Positions 7,168-64,000 of a stretch of 64,000 bases of DNA are shown piece by piece. Both the position numbers and the translations under genes were made by a program. How positions within the stretch are numbered: position 1 is the first letter of the stretch; each line of letters starts with the position of its first letter. The notes beneath the pieces are model-generated. The model saw nothing but the letters and a program-made list of their open reading frames with translations, had not been told where the DNA came from and made no database searches. Source of the DNA: Eukaryota sp. GEM-RC1 (lineage: Eukaryota); the NCBI GenBank assembly GCA_040285855.1, contig JAUFOQ010000003.1:1240001-1304000 (forward strand). The letters are read 5' to 3'.

Positions 7168-7451
7168 AGGTGTTTAAATAAATGTTTATTGTTTTTGTTC
7201 ATCTTTGTTTAATTTACTAAAACAATCGTCTCAACTACTAAACAAAAGTGGCTTCAATTGACTCTGAGAAATCGCACTACATGTAGGGGTCTCACTAGTT
7301 CTGATATCACTTTGTAACTGTGACAGTGGTAATAACTGGCGTCCTTATTTAAAGTATAATGTTGTGTGTGATTATTTGAATCTACATGTCTACTTAATTC
7401 AGATTATGAGCTATCAATTGTTTATGATCAGAAGAAAGTGCAAATCTCTCT

Positions 7452-7771
7452 CTACATGCCTGTCATCTCAGGGATATGAGGACCACAAGGGATATCGATT
7501 CCTTGGCAAACGGGAACGTGGAGCCAGAACTTGCAGTAGGAACCAGGCTCTAAGGATTGGCAGAAAGCATCTCCTCCACAGGGAATGTCAGAACCTTGAC
7601 AACTAGAGTTAAAATGAAGAGTGAAACTTACACTGGAACATGAAGCCAAGTTTTACAGTAGGAAGCATCGTCAAAGGAACGGCAGAATTCATCTCCGTTG
7701 AACGGTAATTCAATGTGACCAGCACATAAGGCGGATACAACCAAAAGAGTAGCGATCAAGAACAGCTTCAT
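7452..7771 (-). CDS. Small secreted Cys-rich protein, copy 1 (one intron, 7603-7631)
   Basis: Signal peptide MKLFLIATLLVVSALCAG, a 29-nt GTAAGT..AG intron, and two repeats of GDxFCxSxxxxSYCKxWLHVPVCQGxDxPC after splicing. Confidence 0.8.
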
Positions 7772-8149
7772 GTAGTCGAAAACAAGTGCATTTAGATCAT
7801 GAGGCAGCCTTTTAAAGGTCGATAGAGGAGTTCTGATAGGTTTACAGTGGTTGACAGGATGTTTACAACTGTCAACTATTGGTGTTGGGAATCATTCTAC
7901 ATTTGAAAAACTCTTAAAGAAAGTACTCTAAAATACATAAATACAAATACAAATCTAATGTTCAAATCTAATGTTAACATTTCAGTGTACATACATCTAA
8001 TAATCAATACCCTCAAAGTCCAGATTGCCTAACGACGACTACATCTGGACAGATGCACAAATATCAAAATGGCGTGTAAAAATCCGTTTAGACTGACCGA
8101 TCATCAGATTTGTATTTGTCCCGCGTTTTTTTAATGGATGTTTCTAATA

Positions 8150-8908
8150 GCTCTGCTTCATGTCTGATTACTCAAATCCCTCAAGGTTACTTTCTTTTTC
8201 TTGATGATAACTCTGGGTCATTAAACGTGCGTTTACGTTTATTTATTTGGCCTGATAACCTTGCACATAATTTATTTTGAAATGCCAATGTGTGCAATCT
8301 GCTACACCGGCACATTTATTGAATTGTATCCGTTTTACTTCTTATAGAAGTAATGTTCATGATTCAGTAAGGGATCAATTATATTGTATGTGTAAATCTT
8401 TTGGAATAGTTTCCTTTTAGAACCAGTTCTGGCTGGTTAGTTTGATGATACAGATGTTGACAAATCGTTTGGAAATAGCCGTGGTGATGTGATACTTCCT
8501 GGTCTCGATGGTTCTTTCATTATTGCTGATGTTATGTCTATCGACGTTTGTAATGGTTCCAACAAGAAACTTGCTAAATCTAATGCTAAAAACCCTCTGT
8601 TGATTGGTGAAAAATTTAAAAAAGAAAAATATTGTGCTAAATTGAAATTATTAAATTCGGTTTCACACTCGAATTACTTGTTGTACCCTTTTGTATTTTC
8701 ACTGTACGGTTCTTTAGGTGAATCTGCAACATCATTACTGGAAGTCTTTGTGAAAATTGTAAAAGAAAAAACATCTAGGACTTTTGATCTTAGATTTTGG
8801 AAAAATCTAATTGTGTTTGCTATCATTAAAGGTATGGTGACTTCTGTATCTAGCGCTTTATTATCTCTTGGCAGATTGTATGAGGATAAGGTAGGTGAGA
8901 ATTTCTAG
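8150..8908 (+). pseudogene. 3' remnant of a CRE-like non-LTR retrotransposon (zinc knuckle plus restriction-like endonuclease)
   Basis: Interrupted frames give HLLNC...HDSVRDQL...EPVL...RGDVILP...IIADV...YPFVFSLYG, the RLE-domain pattern; stop codons present. Confidence 0.7.
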
Positions 8909-9169
8909 TTAGGCAATCTGGACTTTGAGGGTATTGATTATTAGATGTATGTACACTGTAGTGTTAACATTAGATTTGAACATTAGATTTGTATTTGTAT
9001 TTATGTATTTTAGAGTACTTTCTTTACGAGTTTTTCAAATGTAGAATGATTTCTAACACCAACAGTTGACAGTTGCAAACATTATGTCAACATCTGTAAA
9101 CCTATCAGAAATCCTCTGTCGACCTTTAAAAGGCTGCCTCATGATCTAAATGCACTTGTTTTCGACTAC

Positions 9170-9489
9170 ATGAAGCTGTTCTTGATCGCTACTGTTTTGG
9201 TTGTATCCGCCTTATGTGCTGGTCACATTGAATTACCTTTCAACGGAGATGAATTCTGCCGTTCTCTTGACGATGCTTCCTACTGTAAAACTTGGCTTCA
9301 TGTTCCAGTGTAAGTTTCACTCTTCATTCTAACTCTAGTTGTCAAGGTTCTGACATTCCCTGTGGAGGAGATGCTTTCTGCCAATCCTTAGCGCCGGGTT
9401 CCTACTGCAAGTTCTGGCTCCACGTTCCCGTTTGCCAAGGAATCGACGTCCCTTGTGGTCCTCATATCCCTGAGATGACAGGCATGTAG
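9170..9489 (+). CDS. Small secreted Cys-rich protein, copy 2 (one intron, 9310-9338)
   Basis: MKLFLIATVLVVSALCAG.... Intron GTAAGTTTCACTCTTCATTCTAACTCTAG with CTAAC branch point; splicing restores HVPVCQG exactly as in the second internal repeat. Confidence 0.85.
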
Positions 9490-9620
9490 AGAGAGATTTG
9501 CACTTTCTTCTGATCATAAACAATTGATAGCTCATAATCTGAATTAAGTAGACATGTAGATTCAAATAATCACACCCAACCTTATACTTTAAATAAGGAC
9601 GCCAGTTATTACCACTGTCA

Positions 9621-10474
9621 TAGAGCTGTCAACGGCTTGAGCCATATGGTTTGGCTTGTATAATTCCAAACTGGCTTGGTTTTGGCTTGAGCCATTTGAG
9701 TAAGCCAAACCAAAGTGACAAGTCGACTTGAAGCCGAGCCAAGTCGATTGTTTTTCGGCTTGAATAAACAAATATTTTGTAATTGTTTCGATTGATGAAA
9801 CTCATCACAAACTACTGTCGTTTTAGTACAAAGGTGGATGAACACTTTGATGTCTTGTGAATCTTAAGAAGGAGCAGATTCATCGTTTTCGTCATCACTA
9901 CAATCAACTAATTCATAACCATATTTGAGCCAATCCTTTAAGCATTAACGAATTTAAAGATTCGTCAGCAAGTGATGATCGTTTTTGCACTTGATATGGT
10001 CAGCAACGGAAAAAACCCTTTCACAGGGAATTGAAATTACAGGAATGATCAGGAAGTCTCTGCCAAAGTACGATACACCTTTACTCTGCAATTTCCACTA
10101 TACAAGCGGACATGATTTAATATCGTTTGGATGTAAACTCTTGTGTTTTTGAAATTGATTTTCTTCCACTATAACCTCATGACCATCTGGGGGAAGTGGT
10201 GGGAAACGTAAGAATTCCTTGGTGATTTTTCAGTCATGAGAGAGAGAAGTATCGAAATGATTTCTATGTACGTCTTATGATATAACTTATGTTATGACCT
10301 TGTCAACTTGTTCATTTTCATTTTTTATTGTTCGAATCAAGTTCAAGTCACGGCTTGAGCCATATGTTTTGGCTTGGAAAATTCCAAACTGACTTGGCGT
10401 TGGCTTGAGTCATTTGAGTAAGTCAAGTCGAATTTGGATATGACTTGGCTCAAGTCGATCGGCTTACGGCTTGA
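9621..10474 (-). mobile_element. Degenerate hAT DNA transposon fragment
   Basis: hAT-like end TAGAGCTGTCAA at 9621. A GGCTTG-rich subterminal block is directly repeated (~9633-9763 and ~10351-10474). The minus strand at ~9920-10100 reads WKLQ...RDFLIIPVISIPCERVFSVA, matching the hAT C-terminal dimerisation domain. Confidence 0.75.
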
Positions 10475-17441: not shown

Positions 17442-17766
17442 TGCAAGATTGAAAGAACAGCCAAAGCCTTGATAGGAAGTCCAATGGTATGTACTAAAAA
17501 CACAATAATTTTATGTGTGTAAATCTGAATAGAAGAACCTATATTGTCAATATTGGGTGGGACTTAAGTTCTGATCACTTTTCAAAGCCTTGTTTAGGTA
17601 TTTTGATTCAATTTTGAATCGTCTCTTTGCATTGAGACATGAATTTGAGATGATGTAGAGGTATTTGTATCTCATTTGTTAATATTGATGATAGTTTGTG
17701 TTTGTAAGAGTAAATAAATGGCCATTATTATTGTATCAGTACATTTCAGTATATCTCATAGTCTTC

Positions 17767-17853
17767 TACAAATGTTGTTGTTACAAATGTTGTATTACCA
17801 AATGTTGTTGTTACAAGTGTTGTTGTTACAAATGTTGTTGTTACAAATGTTGA
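17767..17853. repeat. 15-bp minisatellite (TACAAATGTTGTTGT, about 6 units), reverse complement of the array family at 60696-61082
   Basis: Read directly from the sequence. Confidence 0.85.
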
Positions 17854-17988
17854 ATACACTTAATAGAATCAAGAACATATGAAGAAGATGTCATAATGTC
17901 AAGATGTCACTGTAGACAACATCTATAAATAGTGTGAATCCATATTTGAGATATCTTTCACACCTCTTCTTAACCTAACTCAAATTAT

Positions 17989-18449
17989 GAAAGAACATCA
18001 GTTCTTAACGCGAAGTACGTCGCGGGTCCTTAGTGGCCCCAGATGTACTTCAACTCTTTCTTATCTTCCTCTGTCTTTTGTACTCTCGAAAGAACATCAG
18101 TTCTTAACGCGAAGTACGTCGCGGGTCCTTAGTGGCCCCAGATGTACTTCAACTCTTTCTTATCTTCCTCTGTCTTTTGTACTCTCGAAAGAACATCAGT
18201 TCTTAACGCGAAGTATGTCGCGGGTCCTTAGTGGCCCCAGATGTACTTCAACTCTTTCTTATCTTCCTCTGTCTTTTGTACTCTCGAAAGAACATCAGTT
18301 CTTAACGCGAAGTACGTCGCGGGTCCTTAGTGGCCCCAGATGTACTTCAACTCTTTCTTATCTTCCTCTGTCTTTTGTACTCTCGACAGAACATCAGTTC
18401 TTAACGCGAAGTACGTCGCGGGTCCTTAGTGGCCCCAGATGTACTTCAA
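17989..18449 (+). repeat. 99-bp tandem repeat: five 65-nt structured units separated by four identical 34-nt pyrimidine-rich linkers
   Basis: Units start at 17989, 18088, 18187, 18286 and 18385; I see only two substitutions among the copies. Confidence 0.97.
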
Positions 18450-18631
18450 TTTTGTTTGTTTTACGCTCGGTCAGTGGCAATGCTGCAACGATTTTTAAAA
18501 CCCGCATGGTCGTACTTTTGTTCATTTGCTGTTGTTTTTGTTGTGATATTTTTGCATCGATCCCCATATCCCTTCATGTGTTAATAAATCAACAATCGTC
18601 TCAGTTTTGTCATGACCTAACCACGGACGGA

Positions 18632-18655
18632 GACATAGAGTCCAATCCAGGACCT
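18632..18655 (+). other. 2A/StopGo ribosome-skipping motif DIESNPGP
   Basis: HDLTTDGDIESNPGP matches the consensus D(V/I)ExNPG-P exactly. Confidence 0.85.
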
Positions 18656-19298
18656 CCTCTTACAGATGACCTTAGAGATGAGCAACTGAGACCCGTTTTT
18701 GCACCAAACGTAGACAATATCGAGACGTTAGAGCCCAACGTCTGGGTTAATGATGATGTCATCGACTTATACGGTGATTTTCTTACAAAAAGCAGCAAAT
18801 GTTGTCAGTACTTTCCAATCAATGACCTGCTTGGTGCTTCTGGTGTTTATGATTTTCAACTATTATTAAAAAAAATTCGAATACCTAATAACATCAATGA
18901 ATAATTGTGTTCCGAAGAAACGATTCATATTCATGCCAATCAACGATGGCCTTTTCGGTAAAACTCCGACTCATTGGACACTTCTAATTTGCGATATTAA
19001 GATCAGACGACTTTTTTCAATCGATTCAACGTATACTGAAGAGGAACACTTCAAACAACTGGCGAATACAATTCGAACTTCTCGCAATGAAACAGTAGTC
19101 CAAAAATTACAGCAAGATTTGTTTAATGACGCACAGTATTTGTATATGGATAAACTCGTTGTAAAGCAAGAGCAAACTGAAAACGATTGTGGACCTTTTA
19201 TTCTGATGTACATTCAAAAGTTTGTTACCTTAACAGACTCATCTATTGATTGTTCATCTATCGATTTTAAAAGAAATTTTAACCAAACTTGTAATTAG
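18653..19298 (+). CDS. Ulp1/SENP-like cysteine protease domain 1 (peptidase C48, clan CE)
   Basis: WVNDDVIDLY, FIFMPIN...HWTLLICD...IDS, Q..NDCGPFIL; frameshift at the A-run ~18868-18875. Confidence 0.85.
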
Positions 19299-19552
19299 CC
19301 AAGACTATGATGCTCTAAAAATGAGGAAAGAAGTTTTGACTTATATTATATCTACTCAATCAGCAGAGAGGGCTAAACGTGCTAGAGAAATCTTAAACAA
19401 ATACTTTTCAGTTCATTCGACACCATCTGAACAACGTCGTAAACCCAAAAAACCAGATACAAGAAAGAAAAAAAGGTCCTAAAACTAAACAACCGGCCAA
19501 AAAAAGAAAGAAGACTGCTAATACTTCTGATTTATCCAAACCTTCTACACTG

Positions 19553-20250
19553 TTGTCATCTACTGATGAAATTCCAGATCCTAACAAACTGACAAAAACT
19601 CAATTACAAGAGGTTTCAGAAGCAATCAAATCGTTATCATCTGAAGAATCGATTGCAGAAGAATGTGTCAATTGGTACTCTTGTCATTTGATGGACATAT
19701 ACAAAGTTGATTTCAATGCATTTGTAACTCCTGGATCTATTCAATCATATTTAGTTGATGAAACTCAATCTCTTCACGAGTTTTTCATGAACAAGATGCT
19801 TGAGACAGATTCTAGATATATTTTTCTTCCTATAAATGATGCAATGACTGGTTTACATTGGGGTTTGACTGTAATTGATAAAAAGGATCTACAAGTGATA
19901 TTTCTCGATCCTCTTTATGATGTTGAAGATCACAGACTGGATGTTGATAAAAATTTAAATGAAATTGACTCTTATTTGAATCAAGATATTTCAAAAATAC
20001 ATGAAATTCTTCATCAACACCAATTTCAGCTGATTATTGTCCCAGTGCTACAAAAACAAACAACAAATGATTGTGGAGTATACGTTCTTCAGTATATGCG
20101 GGGACTTATAGAACTTCTGACTTCAAACCAATTCACAGATCAACCTCTTCTCCATGCTGCTGATAGAATGATACAACACCCTATCAATACTAGGGAGAGT
20201 AGACAAGAAATAAAAGTGTACCTTCAATCTTTACAACCTCCTACAAGTAG
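19553..20250 (+). CDS. Ulp1/SENP-like cysteine protease domain 2
   Basis: YIFLPIND...LHWGLTVID...FLDPL...QKQTTNDCGVYVLQY, with His/Asp/Gln/Cys catalytic residues intact. Confidence 0.88.
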
Positions 20251-20759
20251 AAACCGCATATCTGGACAAACCAAAATTAAGCGAACACAAATATCCGGTG
20301 AAAAAACTGACAAAGTTGCTCAAAAAAAAGTCAAAAAGGATTATACGTAAGCCCAGTGATTCTAATATAGGGGTTCCAAATGTGACTCATAGAGAATTTC
20401 TAAATAGCTTACCAGGTGATTTGTCTAACCGACAAAGAGACGTCGCTTGAAGTTGCACATGATACAACAAGCACTTCAAGAAGCTGAACAATTGTTTCAG
20501 GATTCTTTGATTCGCCCAAAGTTAGAGACTTTAGCTCCAATAGATTTGACAACTCCTCAAATAAACGTTGCTGCTTGTGAGAAAACTGAAACCACAAAGA
20601 CACCAGCTAAGAGTACAACAAAAGTTGGCAAATCCAAAAGTCAACAACCAAACCAAAAGCAAGTGGTAAAACTAATGCTACCAAGAGTCTTAAACCTCCT
20701 AAGAAACAAATGATTGACTTTCATTGTAATTCCGAATTACCAGAAGACTCTAACTCTTG

Positions 20760-21500
20760 TTCAATTTTGTCGTTTGATATTGAAACAAGAGAAGTTGATC
20801 AATTACCTGCGGAGAAACTTACGAAGAATTTGAATGATCAAAGACAAGAACAAAATGAAGTTTTAAAAAATCAAAGTGATTCAGAAAGAGAAGCTTGGAT
20901 TGAAAAACAACAAGTGTTTATGATTTCTGGAGTTTTCGGTCATTTTATTAAGGATGAGTTTTACCTTCAAGAAAGCTTTGTTGCGACTTCAGAAGGATCA
21001 AATTCCTTTTCAGAGGTTGAAAATCCAACTGATTGCCATAGCCTTTTTCTTCTTTGAAGATGAAAAACAGTTACTAGAGTTTTTTGTCACCTATTTGACT
21101 AATAAAAATCCGTCTGTTTTAACTGGATTTAACATTACTAATTTTGATAATGTTGTTCTAGACAATAGAATTGATGCTTTTGGAATAGACTTTCCAGAAC
21201 CAATGCAAGATGATACCACAAAATCACATTTGTCACCTTTATGGCAACGTGTTTGTACTGAATGGGCTGGTAGAGCTGTATGTGATTCATACGTCTATGC
21301 TAAACAATTCATTGCTACAAAATGTTCAAGGTCACTAAGATCATTAAGTTGGTTTTTATTAAATGAATCAAAAGGACGTCTTCGTGATAAATTCGAACAC
21401 TTGTTACCTACTGATTGTGTTAGTAGACGACCTCAAGAAGTTCTACACTATTGTTTCAAAGACAGTGCCCTAGCATTGAAGTTGTTTTTATTATTTCAAT
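20760..21500 (+). CDS. Family-B DNA polymerase-type DEDDy 3'-5' exonuclease domain (no polymerase domain)
   Basis: ExoI ILSFDIET (~20776), EDEKQLL, ExoII LTGFNITNFD (~21125), ExoIII HYCFKDS (~21449); one frameshift between ExoI and ExoII. Confidence 0.88.
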
Positions 21501-21519
21501 CAAATAAAATAGTTCGTCC

Positions 21520-23219
21520 CACTTTTGTCACACATAAGACTACACTGAAGTCTATTGTAAAACACACAGGACTGGAATTGTTGTTGAATTATTATGCTCT
21601 AATGGTTCATAAACTACGAATACACACTTCTTATTGTTTAAAGCTGTTTTTATTGTATTTAAATAAAAATGAGCTTCCACTACCATTAATTACAAGGAAA
21701 GAGGTTGAACACATTCAAAAGTTGCTGAAGGAAATCTCTGCTGATCGTCATAAGATTAAACTAAACAATGGAAATCCGACAATTAATGACGACTTGAGAA
21801 AATTTGTTACAAATCAATACAAACAAGTTATGATTGACAATGGTGGTATTCCACAATTTCCAGCTAACCATTCTCCACGACTTATGGCAATGGTTGGTGA
21901 AACAATACAAACAAATTTGAACACAAACATTAAGATGCGATATCCCCAGTACATTGACAAATTTATTAATGTTTGGTTTGAAAAAATAGTGTTGAAGAAG
22001 AAATGTCCAGAAAAGAAAAGTCTGTATTTCGTTGGAGATTGAGACAAGTAAAAATGTTTTTCTTCAAAGGAATAGAAATGATATTCCAACTACCACTGAA
22101 GAAATACAAGAGTTTATTGAACAATGTGATACCATAATTCTTGAAGATGACAATGAAAAAAGCTTAAGTAGAGAAGATAAAATTGAACTTTTAGCTCAAA
22201 GTCACGACACTGTTCTAGAACTATTTTCAGATCAGGTTTGCATTGATATCCTCTTCCCACCATCAATTAAAATTCAAAAGTCAAATGGTGATTATGAAGA
22301 CAAACAGATTGAGTCTCTAATGAAAGCGGTACACGAACATCCACAATCGTTTATTAAATCAGCAATACAGATAAATAACTTTCTTGAAGAGGATGAAGCC
22401 AGTACTTACAATATAATTCCGATTGTTCGACACGTGGTTCCAGGCTTCTTTGAAGTGGATACACAAGGTCTTTGGGGAATATTACGTTCCACATTAACCA
22501 ATCATCAGGTTAAAGAGAAAAAAATCAGATCTGAGTGGAATACACAAACTGAAATTAGACACATGTCTCCTGCTGAACAAAATCAATTCTGGTCTTACTT
22601 TATCAATTTTAATCGTCCATTTATAAAGAAAGGTTATAAGTTTAACAATTCTATTAAAACTGATGGGTTCTCTGTTTGTATTGAACTTACTAGAGAGGAC
22701 TGTGTGGGAATGTCCTTTAAAGCAGATAGTGCAAAGTTCTCCAGTACTGATGAATATGTTCAAGACTATGATATTGAAGAGTTTACATTGAAAACAAAAG
22801 TTTACATTGATCCTGGCAAGAAGGATTTACTCTACTTCTGTTCAGAAAAAATAAGAAAGCCTGAAAATTTAGCCCGTGAAACGAGAAACAAAGAATACGA
22901 GTGGCTAAGATTGACAGAAACAGAATGGTCGAGATTGTCCAGAGTCCATCAAAAGTTTAGAAGGGAAAAGAAAAAAGAATTTATTCTCCGAGATGAAAAA
23001 ACGGTTGAACAAGAAGAGTCAACATTATCCAAAGAAAATTCAAAGTCAACCGTGTATGAAACCTTCTATGACTATGTGGGTTCCAAACTTACAGTTATTG
23101 AATCAACATTTGATTACTACTGTTTGATGATATGGCGCATTCAAAAAATGCAAAGATACGTCCATATTCAAAAAACAGAAAGTAAGTTGTTGAAAAATAG
23201 TAATATCATGGAGAAGTAA
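21520..23219 (+). CDS. Fanzor (eukaryotic TnpB-like, Fanzor1-like), C-terminally truncated
   Basis: N-terminal KTTLKSIVK...KLRIHTSYCLKLFLLY...LPLI, then NIIPI...FFEVDT, FWSYF, FNNSIKTDGFSVCI, RuvC-I YIDPGKKDLL (D at 22809) and the helix WRIQKMQRYVHIQKTESKLL. RuvC-II, zinc finger and RuvC-III are missing. One frameshift near 22030. Confidence 0.8.
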
Positions 23220-23725
23220 ACAGCTAAAATCAATGGTGGAATATCATCATTACTGACATCGCCAATATTGTAATAGCCATCATTCTGCAGTAGAAGTCAT
23301 CCAATTATTCAATTTAAATTTTCATTAAATCGTCAATAATGACACTTAGCGCTAACTTCAATTTGACATATTACAATGTATGTAAAAATGACTGTCAAAA
23401 ATATACATGTATGGCACTTTTGTAGTACCTTAATTGCGATACTGTATTGCAAATAATTTTGAGCCTCTAGTCAATTACAATATTTTTTTTGACAGTCCCT
23501 GATTGGAGGAATTGTTTTAGAACAATACATTAGATACAAGATGAAAACAGTGTGAATCTCATATTGTATCATCTTGTTCGTAATAGTAGTAATCAGACAA
23601 CAGTGCAGTACGATATGATTAAAATGGTACATTTGGGTTTAGGGATTATGCACGGTAACACGTTACAAAACGACTCCAACAGATGTTACCACGAGTTTTA
23701 CCTGGTAGCGTTCACTGGTTGAAAG

Positions 23726-24039
23726 CATAGCTGTCCATTACGTCATGACACTCTGTAATGACGCCATGACAAATTAACACTTTATGTCATGACATACGTA
23801 ACATCGTTAAATCGTTCAACAGTGTAGTTTTTTGACATTTTGATATAAAATCAATAGTAAAGCATGCTAATCAACACAGAGAAGTATATAGCCAATTGAG
23901 TTTGCATAAGACTGAATTTAGTTGTATCTGTATTTTGTTTCGATCACATCTAATTTCAATTAGAGGTGTAATGATGTAATGAATGTCATGACACCATTAC
24001 GCCATGACAGTGAGGTAGTTGGTGTCATCGACAGCTTTG
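23726..24039. mobile_element. hAT-like MITE, degenerate
   Basis: Imperfect TIRs CATAGCTGTCCATTAC / GTCATCGACAGCTTTG, internal CATGAC repeats, 8-bp flanks GTTGAAAG / TTTGAAAA (6 of 8 match). Confidence 0.6.
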
Positions 24040-24193
24040 TTTGAAAACCCTTTTGCTATGAATAAAAAGTGGTGTTGTTTGTGACTTGCTTCTTCAAAAA
24101 CACTAAAAACAAAATATCTTCTTGCATCAGTTTAAAAAACTAGAATTTATAACAATAAATTAAATAACAAACTATTAAACCACAACGAAACCT

Positions 24194-46466: not shown

Positions 46467-49400
46467 CTATTGCAAATGAGCAGGCAAATTTGAAAAATCG
46501 GCATTAAAATTGGAATCTGGCTGAAATTGTCCAGCATACTGAGAAAACTGACTTTTGACACTGTCAGGAAAAGGATTAAGACAAACGAAATTCTTTGACA
46601 ACAACTTTCTCATCCGATACCTAAACACGTCTTTATCTCCATTAGGACTGTAAAAGAACACAAACCAGCCTTTCTTACAATGTTCAACTGATTGCGCTAG
46701 TTGGCAAATCTTCCCACCTGCGCCAGCAACCTTGAGTTGAAGTCCACTACGATTGACCAAAAGATTGTCAATATCACAATCTACAAAAGGTGGTGTTACC
46801 TTAGTCGTGCCAACATTAACAAAATCAATTTCAATTTGTCCATGAGGAGTAGTAGCAAAGATGTGTGTAGCCTTACCATGGGAAGCAGGAGGTGTACATT
46901 GCATTGGAATAGGACCTGATTGGAGTGCTGACGTCATCTGACTGATGATTGTGTTAACAGGTTGATCATCTCGAAGTAAACAATCAACATCATTAGCTGA
47001 TTGCCCTCTAACAACGAAATCCCTTAGAAATCCGCCATAAACAGAGATCCCTACTTGATGGACTGCCACGTGTGCAATGTAAAGAACGAAATCATCACGA
47101 GTTGATGATGAGTTCAAAACAGAGGTTGTGTTGACGTCAGCTTGAGTAGTCTTGGATTTTGATTGACGTGAGTGGTAAACTTGGCTGATGATTCGTAATT
47201 GGAAAGATCTAATGAGAGGTTGTTACTACAGGACAGAATGTGACTCTGAAGTAAACCCATTACTACAGAAATCAAATCATAACCAACTTCGGAAGGGATT
47301 TCAACCTTGATTGATCTCTTCTTGGAATCAACTTTTAAGGAGACTACTGGAGAAGGTTTTGCCACTGATTCAATAACAGAATTAAGCTGCTTGTTGATTT
47401 TGTCTCGATTGGACCCTCCTCTGCCAATCAGCTTTCCAAAATCGACACCTTCCAAATCAGTAAACTCAATAGTTTCAGGTTCCAAATCAGTCAAAAATCC
47501 TTCAATTCTGGTTCTAATCGTATCAAGTAAGGGTCGGGGACAAGAAACAACCAGTTTAGTGCCAGACCGTTTATCACCAACAAGGTCAATATTGGCTCTT
47601 CGATTGGATTCTCGAAGTTTCCTCAATTGAAACCCAATATTATTTAAAAGTGTAGATCGATGAGTATCAGAAATATCAACAGAAAAACGTGATCGCTCAC
47701 GTTTCATCATTTGCTTTTCCACTAATTCAAGCTGCCAACTAGGCACACTTGATAGAATATCATCCCGGGAACAAAGAGAAACAAAAGAAACAGTTGGAAC
47801 AGAGATTTGAGTTTGTGATTGAACGTCAAACCTAGAAATGTTCATTCTTGAAGAAAAGATGGCAAACGAAAAATCTTGATTCTGATTCGGAATTTGATTC
47901 AATAAAGCACGTGATTCTGATGAAATTTTGGCAACATTGTCTGAATCGTCATCATCAGCCACAGGTCCACTAGAAATGTTAGCAATACCATCATCTGTTA
48001 GTAAAATAAGTCCTGCTGTAGGATTTCCAAGAACTTTGAGTGCTCCAACATTATTAAAAAATGCAGAAAGTTGAGCTTTAGCCAACACGTCATGTGCATT
48101 GGTAGAAAGATGATCAAATTCATCTTGACAGGCAAACCCTAAATCCAACAGTTTCTCTTGAATTGACATGAATGCGGTTTCGGCATCAAACATTATATCA
48201 ACGCTGACTCCATTATGGTCACACCATTTCCTTTTAGATTTGTCATCTTTTTGAGAAAGATATCCATTGAAAATGTTGAGTAAAGTAGAGTTAGTACCTC
48301 GGTCATGAACATATTTGAGATATCGAGGTTTGAAATATTGATCAAGATTTTGAAAAATGATCTCGGCTTCTACACTCCATAATGAAACTAGCTTTGCAGC
48401 GGATCCCAAACATTTAAAATTTGCCGCACTAATTAAAAACAATCCTCGATCAAAAGACACTCCAAACTTTAACAAAAGATTACCTTTTTCAGTAACACTG
48501 AAAGTATCACCATCCTGTTCTTCAATTGCAGAAACTTTCTTCAAAATCTCAATCGAGTTGGAGTATAACCCAGGGTCAAAATCATCCACGAGTTCCAACG
48601 GACTTGATTGATTAGAGCTCAAGGACCAGTAGTTCAGCACAGACTTCAAAACATCTCCAGAAGAAATCTCTGGTCTAAATGACTCTCGCATAGAATCAAA
48701 AACAGACGCTGGGAACAATGCAAAGTAAATTCCACTGGCAACTCTCCCCGCTCTACCTGCTCGCTGAATTGCAGAAGCCTTACAAATCAGTTCCTTGTTC
48801 ATTTCCTGTGTGTTCGCCACTCCTTTCCAAGTAACACTTTGGGAGAACCCACTATCAACAACGTAGCGGATATTGGCTAGAGTCAGACCAGTTTCAGCAA
48901 GATCTGTGGCGAAGAAGACAATTCGATCATAATCAGCTTGACAGACAGAGTGGCGTTGAGTTCTAGTGAGTTTACCATGGAATCCAAACACCGCAGCTGA
49001 TTGAGTTTTCTTCTTAGTTTTAGAGTTCAGTGTGAATGCAAACTCAAACTTACTAGACCGAGTCTTGGGCTTTACTTGTCCATCATCGTCATCGTCATCT
49101 TTTGAGGATAATCCATCACGTAGTTTGTCTTCAAATACAGAGACGGCAGTTTCAACAGCGGCTCTGCTTGGTAAGAAGCAGAGAATGTTACCAGAGTCGG
49201 TATTGCGTAACAAGTCAAAGCATATCTGAATACCAGCGTTAATGATACCATTAGAAAACATATCAAAAGGGATATCGGCAAGAGCATCGGTATACTTACC
49301 ATCAAAAACGTCGATATACTTCTTGTAGACTGGGTAAGAAGGAATGTCAAAAGATAGAGATGCAACAGTGGCAACCGCAGAGAAATAAGGAATCAGTTTT

Positions 49401-51609
49401 TCAGTGAAGGTGGGATCGAAGGTAGCAGTGGTGATGATGAGTTTAAAGGTAGTATCATTGCATTTGCTTCGAGAAGTATTGAGATTCTTCAGAACTTCAC
49501 GTAATAACGCGATAACAAAATCAATTTGGAGACTTCTGACATGAGCTTCATCAATAATGACTGCCTTATAGCTATTAAACACATTAGAAGGTTTCTTTGC
49601 CAATTGTAGAAACTTTCCGTGAGTTAAATACTCAATCTCAGTTTCATCAGTAGAATTGTGTACTCCTAGACCAATGCTGTAGCCAACCCTTTCTCCCCAA
49701 ACGGTGTTAGTTTCATGTGCTACTCTGTGGGAAAGTTGGATGGCGTTGTCACGACGAGGTTGGAGGACAGCAATCTTTTTGATTGGCATGAGTCGTGATT
49801 AGTTTTGATACTTTGTTCAAGAAACCAATCAGACAAATACTGTGGAAGTTGAGTACTTTTTCCAGAACCGGTGTTGATACCAACTAAAAGCACGTCATGA
49901 GAGTCTAAATTTGGAAGAATTTCATGTTTGAAATGATAAATTGGTAAATTTTCTGAAAAATACCTATACTCGTTTTGACACAACTGTAAAACAAGTTTCT
50001 CAGTATGTGGGAAAGACTTCCCCAATGATTCAAGTTCAGATAATCTCTGGTCAAACCCTACAACAATGTCCTTATATCTAACCATCATCTCATGTTCAAA
50101 CTCCTTTTCAGACTTCTTCATGAACTCCTTCAGTTCATCGTGTTCCCGTTGAGTGTCAAGTGCTGCCTGGTCAGCTTCTTCTTGATACTGTGGCACTGAT
50201 GTGTTGTCAGGGGCAAAATCAAACAGCACTTCTGGAAGGATATGATTGGGCTGAGTGAAAACGTATACTTCCCCATTTGATTGAGGAGTTAGATTCTTAT
50301 TATTTTGGGTAACAAAAGCTTTACAAGAGAGAATTGAACCTTGGGAGCCAGAATAGCCATGGGCAGTGGAAATGTTTGTTGAAGAGTACACTCCGTCTCC
50401 TAGAGCTCTGCCATGGAGTTTAAGAGAAAGGTTGAATCCATTAAGAGCAATGGCCGTTGCACGCCAAGATTCGGGAGTTCCATGATAGACGTTGAGAGAA
50501 GTGTTTGGTTGATTTCTTGAGGATTCAGCATCGAAAGCAGAAGATTTAGCATGTACATTGACCTTTCGTACTGATACAAGAGCAGAAGGATCGGGAAGAA
50601 CAGAAGCCAACTGAGTATACGAGGCAGAGTTCTTGGGGACGGTAGAGATGGGAGAGAGAAGTTTAGGTTTAGGTATAGTGGGAGCATGTACTCTTAGTTT
50701 CCAATTACGTGGAAAGAAGAAGTTTGTGAAGGTAGCGGTAGACGAAAGACTGCCGATTAGCTGGCGTTTGGACTCAATGAATGAGTCTAGAGTCTCAACA
50801 ACTCCTGATTTATTCATTGAAGATGTACTGTCATCAGGTACCTCTAAGTCTGGGATCATAGCATTAAGTCGGTCAGGGAGATCTGTTATACACTCAGAGA
50901 CTTTGAGCAGAAACTCGGAGAACTTAGCATCACTATGACCGCTAAGAAGTAAGTTTAGTGGAACCCACCGTAGTGCTGAAACCTCGATATTCCAAGTAAA
51001 GGTGGAAGGAAGCTTAAGAATGATCCGACATGCTTCAAGAGACAAGTTGTTGACAAAGACAATGTAGACCTGATATTTTCCACCAGGAACATAGTAGTTC
51101 AGGGGACTTAGCTTGGATAATTCCTTTCGGAGGAGACGTCCATTAGGAAGATGAATAACAGAAGTTTCTTCAAGAAACTCGCGAATGGCCGTATCATAAG
51201 GTGCTTCAAAGTTGTCGACCTTTCCTCCAAGAGGATTCAGGCGCCTTCCTTCTCCAAAACGATGTTCCTCAGCAAGGAGCACATCGTAGCCTCTCGCAGT
51301 CTTTCGAACAGGTATTAATCCAGCAGCTTTTACTTCTGGCGGTTGAGCTTTCTTGCGGGGTTTTGTTGGTCTGATTGCAGGTTTCTGCGTATTAGTGTGG
51401 TTCCTTGGTGGTTGAAAGGAATCTGATGTGTTAAGATTGTCTTTACAGAAGCGCTTGCAACGAGCTAGATCCATACTCTTCCCGCTAGGAAGCACATCTT
51501 CTTCGACAACCAGTTTCAGTTCTTCCGCGTCTGTTACACCATTTGCTTCGAGGGTATTGACGTAGTCCAGAGTGACTCCAGCATTCAGCAGATCCGATTT
51601 CAATGGCAT
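46467..51609 (-). CDS. Multidomain SAM-like / NUDIX / PARP / DEAH helicase / KH / nucleotidyltransferase protein (two apparent indels)
   Basis: NUDIX box GKVDNFEAPYDTAIREFLEETSV; PARP YHGT...GDGVYSS...GY...EVYVF...ILP; helicase TGSGKSTQLPQ, QPRR, DEAH, TAT, TDLAETGLT, QRAGRAGR; KH GKLIGRGG; NTase VYGGFLRD...DVDC. Breaks at ~49790 and ~47115. Confidence 0.85.
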
Positions 51610-52064
51610 TTGAGATAAGAAATGATCAAATTTTTCAAAATCATTTTATTGAAATTTTGAATGTTCTTCATTCGTTTGTCTTCCACTGTTTCAAATTAGG
51701 GCTCCCGTTTACCCGTCTTTTTAAGATTTCACCTGGGTGATCCGAACTTATGCTCACCTGATGTCGCCCAGAAACACCTGGACTCACCCACTGTCACCTT
51801 GTAAGTACATACTGTCTTAAAAGTGGATTCTTTTCTAAAATTTGCTTAAAAGAAACTGTTTTTTGGATGAAGAGGACAAAAATAGATATCAAAACAAAAG
51901 TTATGAAACACCCGCTTTAAAGTGTTGATAATGAATTGATCTTCACGAAATTAGAGATTCACCCAAGGCCAGTCGATTGTGTATAAACAAAAAGCGACAA
52001 AATCAAAAACCAATACTGTGAACGGATTTATAAAACAGAAATAATTACAGAACTACCAATTTCT

Positions 52065-54734: not shown

Positions 54735-56848
54735 ATGTCAGACACTCCTCACGATGTTCTTTCTGAAGATGATGGATCTGGATATCGAACGCCACGAGAA
54801 GTTACTATCCGACCAAATGTCGATCAAATAGAGTTTGAACTCTCTTCACAAGCAACACATACCTCCTCGGACCCCAGTGTTTCATCAACACTTATTACTT
54901 CACACCCAAACCATCCAATCGACCAATCAGAACCTATGTACCAACAACAACAAGATGTCGATTCATCATTACCTTCATCCCTACTTCTGTCTTCCAATCC
55001 TCCACAAACACCAACAGTAGGACGCCAGGACATGGAACAAGAACCAGTTCAACCGGAAGTTGATTCATCATTAACTTCATCCGAACTTCTTTCTTCCATT
55101 CAATCACAAACACGAGAGATCGCCACAGTAGGACGCCAGGACATGGAACAAGAACCAGTTCAACCGGAAGTTGATTCATCATTACCTTCAACCGAACTTC
55201 TTTCTTCCATTCAATCACAAGCACCAGATATGACCACAGTAGAACACCAGGACATGGAACAAGAACCAGTTCAACCGGAAGTTGATTCATCATTACCTTC
55301 ATCCGAACTTCTTTCTTCCATTCAATCACAAGCACCAGATATGACCACAGTAGAACACCAGGACATGGAACAAGAACCAGTTCAACCGGAAGTTGATTCA
55401 TCATTACCTTCATCCGAACTTCTTTCTTCCATTCAATCACAAGCACCAGATATGACCACAGTGGAACACCAGGACATGGAACAAGAAGTCAAACAAGAAG
55501 ACTCCCCAGTCTCTGCTCCACCTCACCCCCTTTCATCATCTTCCCCTCCTGAACCAAGCACGAAACAATCCCGAGTATCCTCACCTTCTGATGCTGTCAT
55601 TTCCTATATCACTTCCCGAGTAGACTTCAACAGGCCAGACTCCGACTCTTCCCTTAAAGCCTTCCTCACCTCCCCCTGAGCTTAGTAAGATAATCTCAAA
55701 TAACCCTGATGTTGCCTTCCCACTGCTCAATATTTTGACTCTTCCTCATCACACTTTGTCTTTCTTGTATATTCTATCTTTTCACGTGAAGGCCTTTTCA
55801 CAGCAGAATACTTCAAATTTTCTTAATGTTCTAAACTTTCTCTCTTCAAATATGGATGTTGGAATTCTAAGGGAAACTCCTTCAATATGTATGTTTATTG
55901 GCAAACTCTCTCATTTTAGTGAAATCTTTTGTATCAAAAGTGATTGATACCTTCCCAAAAGAGCAAAGTCAGAATCAGCTCTTGCCTTTCCTTTACAATG
56001 TTATTACCAGAATTGTGGAACCTAATTGTTTTTCAGTTTTTCATTTCGATTTCTTCCGCATCTCTGTTACTTCAAACGACCTTGATCTCTTTAAGCGATT
56101 GCCGGTCGACCTTTTACTTTCAGTAGACGAGAAGTTCTTACCATCACACTCCCAGTTTCAGAACATTCTTTTAAATTTGTCAGTTTTTCATCATTTGAAT
56201 TTTCAGTTCAAACGGTGTCGTACAGTTTTGAAGACTTATTCAACTCTTGTGGAGACTACGACAGTGGCTATGGAAAAATTAAATTTTGTCAATAATTTAT
56301 TTTTGTCCACCAATGTCAACTCTTTCCAGTCTGAACATGGATATAGAGTACCTTATCAAGCTTTGTCAGAATTAAGCCAAAAGAATCTCACAATTTTAGA
56401 TTTTAATGACAAATTTAATAAGATCTTGAACACATATTCTGAAATTTTTTCATCTGACAATTTTCTATCAACTTTAATATCATTTCCTCTTGTTTATGGC
56501 TACAGGAAGTTGATCTCTATTTCACAGCTCTGGGGGTCGATGTCAATCAACGACCTCCTGCAGGAACTTCAGATTGATTTTGACACTTTCCAAGCTTTCT
56601 TGAGCCAATTATATGATTTGATGAATCAATCAGATTTAGATTTCACGTATAGTCCTGTTATCGACTCTGATCAAAATACTGTACAATTGAAAATTTTAAA
56701 TAATCAACAGGACCGTGTGTCACAAAAACTAAACTCGCTAGGCTCGGTTTTAAAATCTGCTTCGGTGGCAATTCCAAAGAACAATGCTTTTGCAAGTGCA
56801 TCTAAACATTCAAGTCATGATGCATATCAACATTTTACATTTCAGTAA
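54735..56848 (+). CDS. Hypothetical protein with an N-terminal acidic Ser/Pro/Gln-rich repeat region, split by probable indels
   Basis: Consecutive ORFs 54735-55679, 55735-55947 and 55898-56848, with one break at the C-run ~55672-55676. Confidence 0.5.
55012..55487 (+). repeat. Coding tandem repeat, 111 bp (37 aa), about 4.3 copies
   Basis: Unit TVEHQDMEQEPVQPEVDSSLPSSELLSSIQSQAPDMT; period 111 (55020 versus 55131). Confidence 0.95.
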
Positions 56849-59752: not shown

Positions 59753-60695
59753 TGCTTCAGTCGAAAATGATTGCTTCTTAATTGATTACAGATCAATTAC
59801 AGATGATTCTACTTCGATTGATGAACAATTACCGCTAGTGCTTTTGATCAGGCAAATTAGATGATCATAAGGATAAAAACGTAATCTTTTACCAGACAGG
59901 GATTAAGATTGGGTCGTTTTGATTAAGTCCTGGTGTTATTTGTTTGGTTTTTCAAATTCATATTGCCGTAGAAAATTACTCGGTACCGAATAAAGTTTAT
60001 ATAGTAGAAATAGTTCATATGATGATTTTTTTTATAATGAGAAATCTTTAATCGGTACCCAATAATAGATTGTCCCGAGCTCAATAATTTAAACAACACA
60101 AGTAAACAAAGTAACTCTAACAGAAACTTGCCAAATCTAATACAAAATAACCCCTCTTTATTGGAAAAAAATCTACTGTACTAAATTGCAATTATTGAGC
60201 TTGATTTCACAGTCCAATTACTTTTACACATTAGTATGCTCGTTGGAAGGAATCAGTGACTTGACAACTTTGTGAAAAATAAAATAGCAATAACTGACTC
60301 CTGTTTCTGACGCTTTTTTCCTCGGCAGGCATTATGAAGATACTAGTGTTGAATTCATTTGGGGTGCATACTCCCCAAAATCATTTTACCCCAAATACTC
60401 TTCACCCCATAACCACATCCCCAAACTGATTCACTTATACCTTCTTTGATGGATTCCATACATCGTTTGATATCCAGTGTTGAGCTTCTTTCAAGATAGA
60501 GACGTGTTTGCAGGTATTCGTTCTTAGACTTGTGAACCGTGTTCATCCATGTCAAGAATAAAATCAACGTTGTACAACCATCTTACAACACATACATCAC
60601 ATTGACATCTTATCCTCCCAAGGAAAACATTAAGGTTTGCTTCATGAAGCTTCATGCATCAGAAGACACAAAGACACCAAGTTATAACTACATGT

Positions 60696-61082
60696 ACAAC
60701 ATTTGTAACTACAACATTTGGTGATACAACATTTGTAATGACAATAGTGTTGTATGTGTAATGAATTGTTGACATTGATATTTTTTTCTTCTATATATAC
60801 ATTTGGTGAAACAACATTTGGTGATACAACATTTGTAACTACAACATTTGGTGAAACAACATTTGTAACTACAACATTTGGTGATACAACATTTGTAACT
60901 ACAACATTTGGTGATACAACATTTGGTGATACAACATTTGGTGAAACAACATTTGTAACTACAACATTTGTAACTACAACATTTGGTGATACAACATTTG
61001 TAACTACAACATTTGGTGAAACAACATTTGTAACTACAACATTTGGTGAAACAACATTTGTAACTACAACATTTGGTGATAC
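60696..61082. repeat. 15-bp minisatellite: ACAACATTTG plus TAACT, GTGAT or GTGAA
   Basis: About 3 units at 60696-60740 and about 19 units at 60799-61082. Confidence 0.95.
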
Positions 61083-64000
61083 TGTTAGCCACAGGTGTTA
61101 GTGAAGTGTTACAAGATCATATTATTTTATTTATAAAGGACATGATCATTTGGCTACAAAGGGTAGGGAAAAGATGTTTATAAATAAAATAATATGATCT
61201 TGTAACACTTCACTAACACCTGTGGCTCTTCTCTCTTCTTTCGAGCTCCTAGTTCTCTTTGCTACAGGTGTCTTAACTTTGGAAGACGTCTTAGGAGTAC
61301 TCTTACTGCCGGAGGTACGTTTAAGCTTAGTGTTGTTATTACTAGACCTGTTTCTATTGTTACGAAATAAATCTAAATTGTCTAATTTTACAAAGTCACT
61401 ATACGCTTTGGTGTTCTTGATGTCCTTGATGGGAACTGACGAAGTATCACCACCAAACCAAAGTACAGTGCAGAATTCACCATCGGGTGTATCAAACCTA
61501 TCTAGGATCTTAACCACGATGTGTTCTTCAGAATCCCCAGAAGCAATTGCTCTGTGGAGATCATGATCAGCAGGCAGATCTGATTGAAAGATCTTACATT
61601 GATGAATGCTAGTCTTACTAACATATCCAGTGATCAGATTCTTTAATGAAACAGAAGATTTTGAATCAACTGAGACAACTAGAAAAGGTCCAGTGTAGTT
61701 TCCATGGAGCTTACTAGTTTTGGCGACCTTTAACACAAGATCTCCAATCTTAAATGATTGACTAGTGTTAAACTTCTTCTTAGGCTTGAGTACTGATTGA
61801 CGATCCTCTGCCTCTTCTCTTTTTTTTCGTTAAACGTTCTAGTTTCATTTTAATGTCGTCAATAAACGAAACATTCTTTGTTGATTTCTCAACAGCATCT
61901 AGTAAATCACTAGGATCTGCACCAGGACTTATGTCACTACCAAACATCAGTTCGTAAGGAGTATGCCCAGTTATTGAACTCTTTGTTGCGTTGATCTGCA
62001 ACTGTACAGTTGGAATGTACGTTGACCAATTGTCATAATCATTGAAGTCCACAAGGAGACGACGTAGGCTTTGCAGAACGTCTCTGTGACGTCGTTCCAC
62101 CAGTCCATTACTCTGGGAGAAATGAGGAATCGAACGACTTACTTCAATCGCCAGTAGGTTACATATTGCCTCGAAAATAGCATTGGCAAACTCCGTACCA
62201 TTATCACTATGGATACAAAACGGTATTCCAAAGATAGCAATCACATCCCACACAAGACGATATGCTACTTCTCTACTGTTAAGTTCTTCGAGGGGGCTCA
62301 AAATGGTGTATCTGGTGAAAGAATCTACAAACACCAATAGGAATTGGTTTCCATTTTGATCTTTTGGAAGTGGACCGATTGTGTCGACATTAAGTCTAGC
62401 AAAAGGTCTATCAGCCCATAGAGAACCCGTCGATTCAATTATCTTTTTAGGGATAGGTGCCGTTTTCTGACACGCAGGGCATTGCTGAACATGTTTTATC
62501 ATGTCAGCTTTCATACTCTGGCCAAAAGTAACCACTATTGAACAACATTTCCAAACTTCGTTTCTTGTTTGGGTGTCCTGACTGGACTAAGCCATGTAGC
62601 ATGTAAAGAACTTTCTTTATTAAGCTAGATGGAATCAAAATCTTGTTCTTTGAGTTCATGTATACATTACTCATTGTACACAAAGTTGAACCATTAAACA
62701 GTTGATCTCCTTGTTTTATCGCTTTAGATTGTTCTGACCTAATGGTGGATAACCAAGAGTCAAATAAAGGAAGTTTGTTGTCTGTTGAGAGATTACGAAG
62801 ACACTTGATAGCTAATACGTTGGAGTCACGTGGAAGCATCTCAACATAGTCTGCATCATCATAAAGTAAGCCTTCATGAGAAAGGGTTAAATCTTTTTGA
62901 TGGAAAGATTTGAGATCGTTAAAGATTTGATTGTTTCAACTGGGCGTCGGTCAATAACACGTGACAACATGTCAGCCCATTGATTGTTTGTACCAGCTAC
63001 ATGTACTATCTCAAAATCGAACTCTGAGAAAATTGGAATCCATCGTTTGACAATACGATTCTTTTCTGGAGCAGATATAAGATAAGCAAGGTTCCTATGA
63101 TCAGTAAAGATCGTCAAGTGCCTACTTAACAGAAAACCTTCTAAACTAGATTCTGTCAGAATCAAAAGAATGAACTTACCAGTTGATGGTACGGCCCATC
63201 CTTGTCGTATAAGTTCATTAAAAATTTCTTCGGCTATACGCTGTTTTTCAGGGTTAAGCCTTCTAGGAGGACGAAATACAGTGACACTTTCATCATAGAA
63301 TGGAATTGTCATGGGTGGACAATCAATACCATCAGGATGTATATCTTCTGAAAAGACTTGTTTGTATTTACTGAGTAGGCTCAGAAGCTCCGTTCTTCTT
63401 GTAGAATCATCATGAAGGACATTGTCAGGACGTTCATCTTCAGAGGATTGACTAAGATCGATGTGATTTTCAATCGATGGAGACAAATCAGGAAACTTGT
63501 TTGATTGTCTATCTCTTTCTGCTTTGGTTTTGTTGGCTTTAGCAATCAACTCGTTTCTATGTCGAATTTTCGGTTCTTGGAGTTCTTTTTCGACATGACT
63601 GTTGATTCTTGGTTCAAATCACGAGTGAAGTTCTCGGTCACACGGTAAACGTTTTCATGTTCTTCACTGGCAACAAACCGATCAACGTCTCCAAATTCTC
63701 CATCAAACTTTCTAGTTGAGAGAATATCACGTGAACCATCAGTGAAGCGGTCAACAGATTCTGGACGGAAAGGTTCACCAGGAACGTGAGCAGAAAGGCG
63801 AGCAGTTTGACGTAGCTCTTCAGGCTTGGGAAGAAGTGTACCAACTTCTCGTAAAGCACCATGAGCAACAGGAAGGACCTTTTGAGATCCGCCAATGCCA
63901 CTAAACTGTTGGACAACCACAGAACCTTCATCAGGAACAGCTAAGGTCGTGTTTGATGCTTCAAAGGTTGACTGTGGAAGGTTTTCATATCTATGACCAA
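61083..64000 (-). mobile_element. Ty3/gypsy LTR retrotransposon, internally deleted, running off the window
   Basis: RT N-terminus (PPRRLNPEK...ELIRQGWAVPS), RNase H end (TDHRNL...ADMLSR), integrase H2C2 (H..GH..CPACQK), core DTIGPLP / SDNGTEF / NGLVER, a GPF motif and a chromodomain-like tail. Confidence 0.92.
61087..61227. repeat. Perfect 51-bp inverted repeat (61087-61137 / 61177-61227) at the 3' end of the retroelement; putative short LTR
   Basis: The arms are exact reverse complements; there is a minus-strand polypurine tract at 61226-61242 and the element edge TGTTAG at 61083. Confidence 0.9.

Follow-up and report, generated by a model that had tools for sequence, protein, structure and literature searches.

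A predicted fusion of Fanzor1 to a proofreading exonuclease in a multi-copy gene family of one protist lineage

The closest described relatives of the enzyme reported here are the Fanzor1 nucleases SpuFz1 (8GKH, 9CEU-9CEZ), PpFz1 (9CF0-3) and GtFz1 (9CER), none of which, in the portions of the literature available to us, is described as fused to another enzyme. Here we analyse a locus on the plus strand of a 64,000-nucleotide stretch of Eukaryota sp. GEM-RC1 DNA (the window; assembly GCA_040285855.1, contig JAUFOQ010000003.1, positions 1,240,001 to 1,304,000), which belongs to a gene family of one protist lineage whose architecture we take, from translations and a modelled homologue, to be real: a Fanzor1 nuclease fused directly to a family-B polymerase (PolB) proofreading exonuclease. 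The family shares with the three known enzymes the Fanzor1 fold over 510-584 residues (Z 21-27), a RuvC-II glutamate just before a C4 zinc finger and, with GtFz1, an asparagine at RuvC-III; like Spu-1, as reported, it is multi-copy with no transposase inside. Unlike known Fanzor1, it has an exonuclease welded to the first WED strand, and adds a 2A leader and optional proteases.

Three further systems resemble parts of this arrangement. When the T4 td intron homes, I-TevI cleaves at a distance of 23-25 nt from the insertion site, and the process is influenced by 3'-5' exonucleases that include a family-B proofreading domain; that nuclease, however, is protein-guided and works with exonucleases encoded as proteins of their own by the phage, whereas here a single eukaryotic chain holds both in a role that we infer. 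APE (apurinic/apyrimidinic endonuclease)-type non-LTR (long terminal repeat) retrotransposons such as L1Tc, Ingi and CR1/L2/Crack likewise have a single long open reading frame (ORF) with a 2A near its N-terminus, but the family models have neither APE nor reverse transcriptase (RT). SENP8/NEDP1 and Ulp1/SENP enzymes (MEROPS C48) possess the same His-Asp-Cys triad and oxyanion Gln as the proteases here, which, in contrast to them, are fused to a nuclease, fast-evolving and present in zero to two copies.

Among titles and the opening lines of abstracts we found no published natural exonuclease-Fanzor fusion, and the word 'exonuclease' occurs 0 times in the accessible main texts of Bao and Jurka 2013, Saito 2023, Jiang 2023, the Yoon 2023 preprint and a 2026 review. 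Jiang 2023 states that Fanzors often carry extra domains, and a supplementary figure there may list such a fusion. The three assemblies that hold the family come from a study of free-living metamonads whose genomes are 4-55% repetitive; 'Fanzor' occurs 0 times in the accessible text of that study (PMC11316075). Automatic Pfam annotation of the public models, with PF26935 among its labels, makes the domain set visible in databases.

Three-frame translation and Pfam searches of the window copy confirmed what the initial annotation had proposed, namely a 2A motif, two C48 proteases with intact catalytic residues, a DEDDy exonuclease with all three Exo motifs and Fanzor motifs through RuvC-I, in that order on one strand. 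A hydrophobic leader ending in a canonical 2A motif (18506-18655) is followed by the first C48 (clan CE) protease (18695-19271; PF02902, E-value 2.7e-9), a basic linker (19272-19612), the second protease (19613-20200; PF02902, 4.2e-14), a low-complexity basic linker (20201-20757), the family-B polymerase 3'-5' (DEDDy) exonuclease (20758-21490; PF03104, 3.2e-12) and Fanzor1 (21500-23195), the last comprising WED, REC, RuvC-I (Asp 22809) and the helices after it; the protease and exonuclease matches all exceed curated cut-offs. The path from 18506 to 23195 runs for about 1,563 codons with nine frameshifts and zero in-frame stops, where about 1,550 codons and roughly eight indels had first been estimated. 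Homology to complete relatives stops at 23195 and the final eight codons of the extent originally given, to 23219, are foreign sequence.

The frame changes, five base gains and four losses, lie near 18872 (first protease), 19275 and 19470 (first linker), 20325, 20437 and 20640 (second linker), 21046 (exonuclease), and 21985 and 22052 (Fanzor1). All nine are at or beside single-base runs of 3-8 bases, and for eight the run is of at least four, against 34% of positions as background; this association is suggestive at most, because the breaks were placed by eye and partly guided by the runs. The locus has nine frameshifts in 4.7 kb, compared with six in 14 kb of the dynein heavy chain gene in the same window (p = 0.004), a higher rate that reflects poor polishing of a repeat, early decay, or both. 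Since no in-frame stop interrupts it, the copy either arose recently or is intact as far as the break.

Beyond 23195 the window copy has lost RuvC-II, the zinc finger, RuvC-III and any guide region. Six-frame searching with a profile built on the final 150 residues did not recover the missing C-terminal ~140 residues anywhere in the window (best E-value 0.39; two controls, 1e-60 and 2.4e-50). The copy as assembled is therefore unable to cut DNA, contrary to the suggestion that its product could. In place of these parts and of the expected guide-RNA region is a non-homologous, unstranded stretch with small inverted and direct repeats (23196-24190), in which the five of 15 short frames that were scanned gave no Pfam match. 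Within it, at 23390-24010, short inverted and direct repeats (TGTCATGACA units) are crowded together in what resembles one or more small non-coding terminal inverted repeat elements. An inverted match between the 5' and 3' flanks was not above shuffles (138 of 200 scored as high), the copy's own 3' end being lost. What the window contains is one member of a multi-copy gene family, broken by frameshifts and truncated at its 3' side; this copy is itself a dead end, and the value lies in the family.

The last frame of the window copy retrieved four long proteins among 2,416 candidates, all from Eukaryota sp. TZLM3-RCL; two of them, P0001 (1,846 aa) and P0006 (1,905 aa), are unbroken 2A-C48-C48-exonuclease-Fanzor1 proteins. 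Each is one uninterrupted gene model, which answers the concern that other copies might reveal the modules as unrelated nested insertions. Cluster look-ups and two further searches, with two members of one cluster left out, extended the family to at least 63 gene models: 56 in TZLM3-RCL, 4 in GEM-RC1 and 3 in TZLM1-RC. Every 2A, Exo I-III and RuvC I-III pattern is present in 12 of the 63, the remainder being fragments, and of these 12 complete models two have two proteases, one has one and nine have none.

Of the Fanzor part of the window, ORF 21996-23216 alone had no Pfam or PDB match and the frame 20924-22039 matched SpuFz1 weakly (E-value 0.0073); the window part is 49-56% identical to complete Fanzor1 relatives, with P0001 matching SpuFz1 by sequence at 7e-30. 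An AlphaFold2 model of the homologue P0009 (43-row alignment, mean predicted local distance difference test score 75) had SpuFz1, PpFz1 and GtFz1 as its best structural matches, with family-B polymerases next. Against SpuFz1 it gave a Foldseek E-value of 1e-26 and TM score of 0.76 (Z 26.8, root-mean-square deviation (rmsd) 4.5, 571 residues aligned), so that the C-terminal region, which might have lacked a TnpB/Fanzor fold, is predicted to have one. The exonuclease of the model (residues 131-380) matches those of Pol alpha, epsilon and delta (Z 18-19, rmsd 2.3-3.2, about 190 aligned, RNase H-like fold). Fanzor1 (383-1096, aligned from SpuFz1 residue 18) begins three residues later, the last exonuclease helix running directly into the first WED strand, and the junction is of equal length in all six representatives shown. 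In the window the junction falls inside one open frame (20924-22042).

How widely does this fusion occur? Searching a library of 1.84 billion proteins with the junction-spanning frame returned 61 matches, of which 7 contained both modules, 39 Fanzor only, 13 exonuclease only and 2 neither. All seven two-module matches come from TZLM3-RCL, GEM-RC1 and TZLM1-RC; as far as one single-sequence search can reach, the fusion therefore seems restricted to this protist lineage. P0072, a match reaching the junction, was set aside as a bacterial-type DNA polymerase II with no fusion. In scans that need a close pattern match, none of the candidates was confirmed as a related locus, whether among viral contigs (62 and 4 pattern matches) or metagenome contigs (591 and 77). 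In a tree of the Fanzor part (a quick, unrooted method on 29 rows, with near-copies thinned and 22 of 51 candidate rows left out), a branch with support of 100 separates the 11 fused rows, among them the window, from the 18 stand-alone rows, a topology compatible with a single origin of the fusion. The window row is 91% identical to P0035, in the same clade.

Both catalytic centres appear to have been retained. In the window, Exo I (DIET, 20776), Exo II (21128) and Exo III (YCFKD, 21449) are present, and the carboxylates D, E, D and D are invariant in eight of eight lineage representatives that are 17-49% identical, in an alignment where only 22 of 217 ungapped columns are invariant and the Exo III tyrosine is kept in seven of eight; a stray pattern match added N-terminal sequence to one row, none of it within the counted columns. 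Judging from this alignment, the exonuclease is under selection, its carboxylates kept through deep divergence. The polymerase domain PF00136 had no match in the window locus or the family models scanned.

As for the nuclease, the RuvC-I aspartate is found in 36 of the 63 models and the RuvC-II glutamate in 30, the others being without the region or pattern; complete relatives show the latter just before the C4 zinc finger, the motif of Bao and Jurka, whereas the window copy has RuvC-I only. At RuvC-III, all 30 models showing the motif have asparagine (RN) and none of the 63 aspartate (RD), unlike the 17 stand-alone relatives, 16 of which have RD and one of which is without the region. We rejected the idea that this asparagine marks a dead nuclease, because GtFz1 carries it and still cuts, and in SpuFz1 the D606N change raises activity above that of the wild type (PMC11423790). 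For the family nuclease, RNA-guided cutting of DNA is the predicted activity.

The proteases are far less constant. In the window, the His-Asp-Cys triad and oxyanion Gln are complete in both: Trp 18746, His 18972, Asp 19023, Gln 19173 and Cys 19188 in the first, and His 19856, Asp 19907, Gln 20057 and Cys 20072 in the second, which is without the conserved tryptophan of WLxD that the other six of seven aligned domains keep. The two are 31% identical to each other over 113 residues and only 16-25% identical to relatives' proteases, and identity between most proteases across the family is 16-35%. Complete family models carry two, one or none, so that the pair first annotated holds for the window and not as a fixed feature of the family; we read the proteases as optional, swappable cargo on a fixed core of 2A, exonuclease and Fanzor1. 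C48 domains probably also occur as cargo of other transposons, for which a literature search gave no confirmation.

On substrates, the best solved-structure match of P0001 (1.4e-7), P0109 (3.6e-8) and the first window domain (0.035) is SENP8, and weak matches of the second window domain favour other clan CE enzymes. Since SENP8 is a deneddylase, SUMO is not established as a target of the mark-stripping initially proposed, and we take 'Ulp1' here to be the name of the Pfam family only, with no statement on substrate; for self-processing by the proteases we found nothing in support. The first linker contains KKRKK (19499-19513), a candidate nuclear import signal, and the second a conserved helix (20435-20509) common to subfamilies A and B (tblastn; 52% identity over 25 residues to P0008).

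Upstream of 18506 the frame remains open from an ATG at 17987, through a stop-free tandem array in frame with the leader (17989-18449, plus strand; 99-bp unit, 4.7 copies, 99% alike) that the initial description of a hydrophobic leader did not include. The array is likely the element's 5' module: the leaders of P0004 and P0020 also contain repeats, with periods of 22 and 30 residues. The 99-bp unit folds better on the plus strand than 200 of 200 shuffles (z = -3.6), and had no Rfam match of note (four at E-values of 1.6-4.7, all far below gathering scores). Hydrophobicity itself, true of the window leader, is not conserved in the family, with hydropathy of 0.45-2.62 across 11 leaders, and a conserved signal peptide was rejected on the same values.

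The 2A motif, DIESNPG|P at 18632-18655, has its predicted skip between the glycine at 18650-18652 and the proline at 18653-18655. It is present in 25 of the 63 gene models; the form D(V/I)ExNPG|P is canonical in the window, P0001, P0006 and P0034. A DxHxNPGP variant, with His for the key Glu, occurs in P0004, P0013, P0041 and P0042 and is fixed in several subfamilies. In one survey 14 of 17 predicted class A 2A peptides skipped (PMC12338488), and skipping here would free the enzyme's N-terminus from a variable, repeat-coded leader.

The distribution of copies supports a selfish multi-copy element, as originally suggested: the 56 gene models of TZLM3-RCL are on 13 contigs, mostly dispersed. Copies cluster only weakly, with p = 0.02-0.04 when any neighbour counts and 0.07-0.26 across subfamilies, which is too little to show targeting into shared repeats. 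The subfamily-B core carries two unrelated protease versions (P0013 and P0034), and P0042 joins a P0013-type protease (89%) and a P0100-type leader to a different exonuclease; with proteases so divergent and swapped, 5' modules have evidently been shuffled among elements. No RT, APE or transposase domain was found in any family model scanned, nor any RT or endonuclease Pfam match at the locus, and out of 4,171 candidate proteins 618-1,967 residues long, the leader of P0100 (residues 1-255) matched only two, each belonging to the family. In P0002, P0007, P0008 and P0030, Fanzor-family sequence is joined to a shared upstream repeat or to a DEAH helicase with zinc knuckles, which is either a neighbouring second repeat family (a possible target or partner) or the product of gene-prediction joins.

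We put at roughly one in two the probability that complete members act as a cut-and-trim homing nuclease. Taking as given the domain order, fold, kept catalytic residues and many dispersed copies, we infer the later steps as follows. Ribosomes would skip at the 2A, releasing the enzyme from its leader, and the basic linkers would take it to the nucleus. There, loaded with a guide RNA derived from the 3' end of the element, Fanzor1 would cleave insertion sites that still lack the element, about 16-21 nt from the target-adjacent motif (TAM). SpuFz1 behaves in this way: counted from the TAM, its cut falls after base 16-17 on the non-target strand and after base 20-21 on the target strand (PMC10432273). 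The TAM-side end would keep a single-stranded 3' tail of ~16 nt, mismatched at the junction to the element-containing template; the tethered 3'-5' exonuclease would chew this tail back and host gene conversion would copy the element into the break. Where present, the proteases may strip NEDD8, SUMO or ubiquitin from the element's protein or from nearby repair or silencing factors. First arrival at new loci would likely need a partner in trans, and none was found in the domain scans of family models and the one leader search.

Precedents exist for the separate parts. TnpB-family nucleases cut element-free sites and repair copies the element back, and such homing by gene conversion has been shown for bacterial TnpB and IscB and is only inferred for Fanzors, according to the accessible part of a recent account (PMC13565253). 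Intron homing in T4 is influenced by DexA and by the proofreading exonuclease of gp43 (PMC2988022, PMC12153337), and in yeast the proofreading activity of Pol delta clears non-homologous 3' tails during gene conversion (PMC9477423). We favour cut-and-trim homing because the cut would leave an unmatched 3' tail and family-B proofreading domains remove such tails elsewhere.

Several points weigh against it. The complete members are predicted gene models of one assembly, and the window copy is without two of the three RuvC motifs. About 50 dispersed loci are more than homing by itself can account for, and between subfamilies the copies show no significant clustering (p = 0.07 and 0.26). Stand-alone Fanzor1 persists without the exonuclease, as in the 39 Fanzor-only library matches, and trimming is therefore not essential to Fanzors. 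A 3'-5' exonuclease could, moreover, equally favour deletions over gene conversion.

The conservation of catalytic residues is equally compatible with an enzyme that cuts and destroys, its exonuclease degrading the ends with no re-joining so that guide-matched empty alleles, rival elements or viruses are lost, and that persists because the element kills competitors or the host benefits. We consider this unlikely. Contact with viruses is plausible, because the closest predicted viral structures are giant-virus Fanzors, and engineered TREX2-Cas9 fusions provide a precedent; the many decayed copies and swapped 5' modules, however, look selfish rather than domesticated.

Somewhat less probable again is that the family is a passenger on a retroelement or DNA transposon, with its 5' repeats and 2A taken from a LINE (long interspersed nuclear element)-like donor, its spread wholly due to an outside RT or transposase and its exonuclease trimming ends at integration. 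The dispersed copies fit such a history, as do the 2A motifs at the N-terminus of many non-LTR retrotransposon ORFs (PMC3708506), the frequent riding of Fanzors on non-autonomous elements and the DnaQ-like exonucleases known as accessory domains of LTR polyproteins (PMC6338049). Against this, no RT, APE or transposase domain was seen in the family models scanned, and the only leader searched, that of P0100, led back to two family members. A passenger history can coexist with cut-and-trim homing.

We think it improbable that the exonuclease acts on RNA, trimming the 3' end of the guide or maturing the element's transcript. Fanzor guides do need cutting from a longer transcript, and the DEDD fold includes RNases; the sequence and fold here nonetheless match DNA-polymerase proofreading domains, which are DNA-specific. 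That the whole arrangement is an artefact of nested insertions or gene-prediction joins, as the apparently spurious joins of P0002, P0007, P0008 and P0030 to a neighbouring helicase or repeat and the low identity of the window proteases to their relatives might suggest, is very improbable and already contradicted for the exonuclease-Fanzor core, since the window DNA itself is a stop-free colinear path and the junction lies within single open frames both there and in the seven two-module library matches from three assemblies.

The window surrounding the locus is intron-poor eukaryotic DNA. Upstream are NAR1-like, choline transporter-like and gamma-tubulin complex component genes and ABC transporters, and downstream is the dynein heavy chain (the transporters and dynein both recognised from translations), which is split into seven overlapping frames over 14 kb, so that host genes are frameshifted too. 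The locus lies between two opposite-strand host genes and is therefore not inside a viral block; no polymerase, capsid or packaging genes stand beside it, its neighbours being ordinary eukaryotic genes.

At the far end of the window is a decayed Ty3/gypsy element (integrase 61780-62586, minus strand). A 15-bp tandem unit occurs upstream of the Fanzor element at 17764-17855 and, inverted, at 60695-61082, just 3' of the Ty3/gypsy pol; the upstream array, which precedes a TATA-like box near 17925, is possibly what is left of an LTR, and a link between the two beyond the repeats was rejected, since 47-68 of 200 shuffles scored as high as the flanks. At its 3' end the Ty3/gypsy element also has a perfect 51-bp inverted repeat with a 39-bp loop (61087-61227). 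Elsewhere, 716-bp inverted repeats, 97% complementary, surround an 874-bp core at 7318-9623 with a 155-residue frame without Pfam match; a frameshifted minus-strand gene at 46467-51645 has NUDIX, PARP-like, DEAH helicase and weak KH matches and is followed by an unassigned 251-residue frame; and a 111-bp tandem repeat (4.3 copies, 55014-55487) lies inside a coding frame.

A fused lineage with both active sites kept offers a direct test of what Fanzors do for their eukaryotic elements. As a natural version of engineered exonuclease-nuclease fusions, the family already has uninterrupted members in public records. More tentatively, and with rather less confidence than in homing itself, we suggest a transposase-free eukaryotic mobile element propagating through an RNA-guided cut-and-trim machine of its own. 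This would be the first natural fusion between a Fanzor and an exonuclease that processes ends, evolved to steer repair toward copying of the element and carrying ubiquitin-like proteases as counter-silencing cargo. If true, the family would provide a ready-made endonuclease-exonuclease genome editor.

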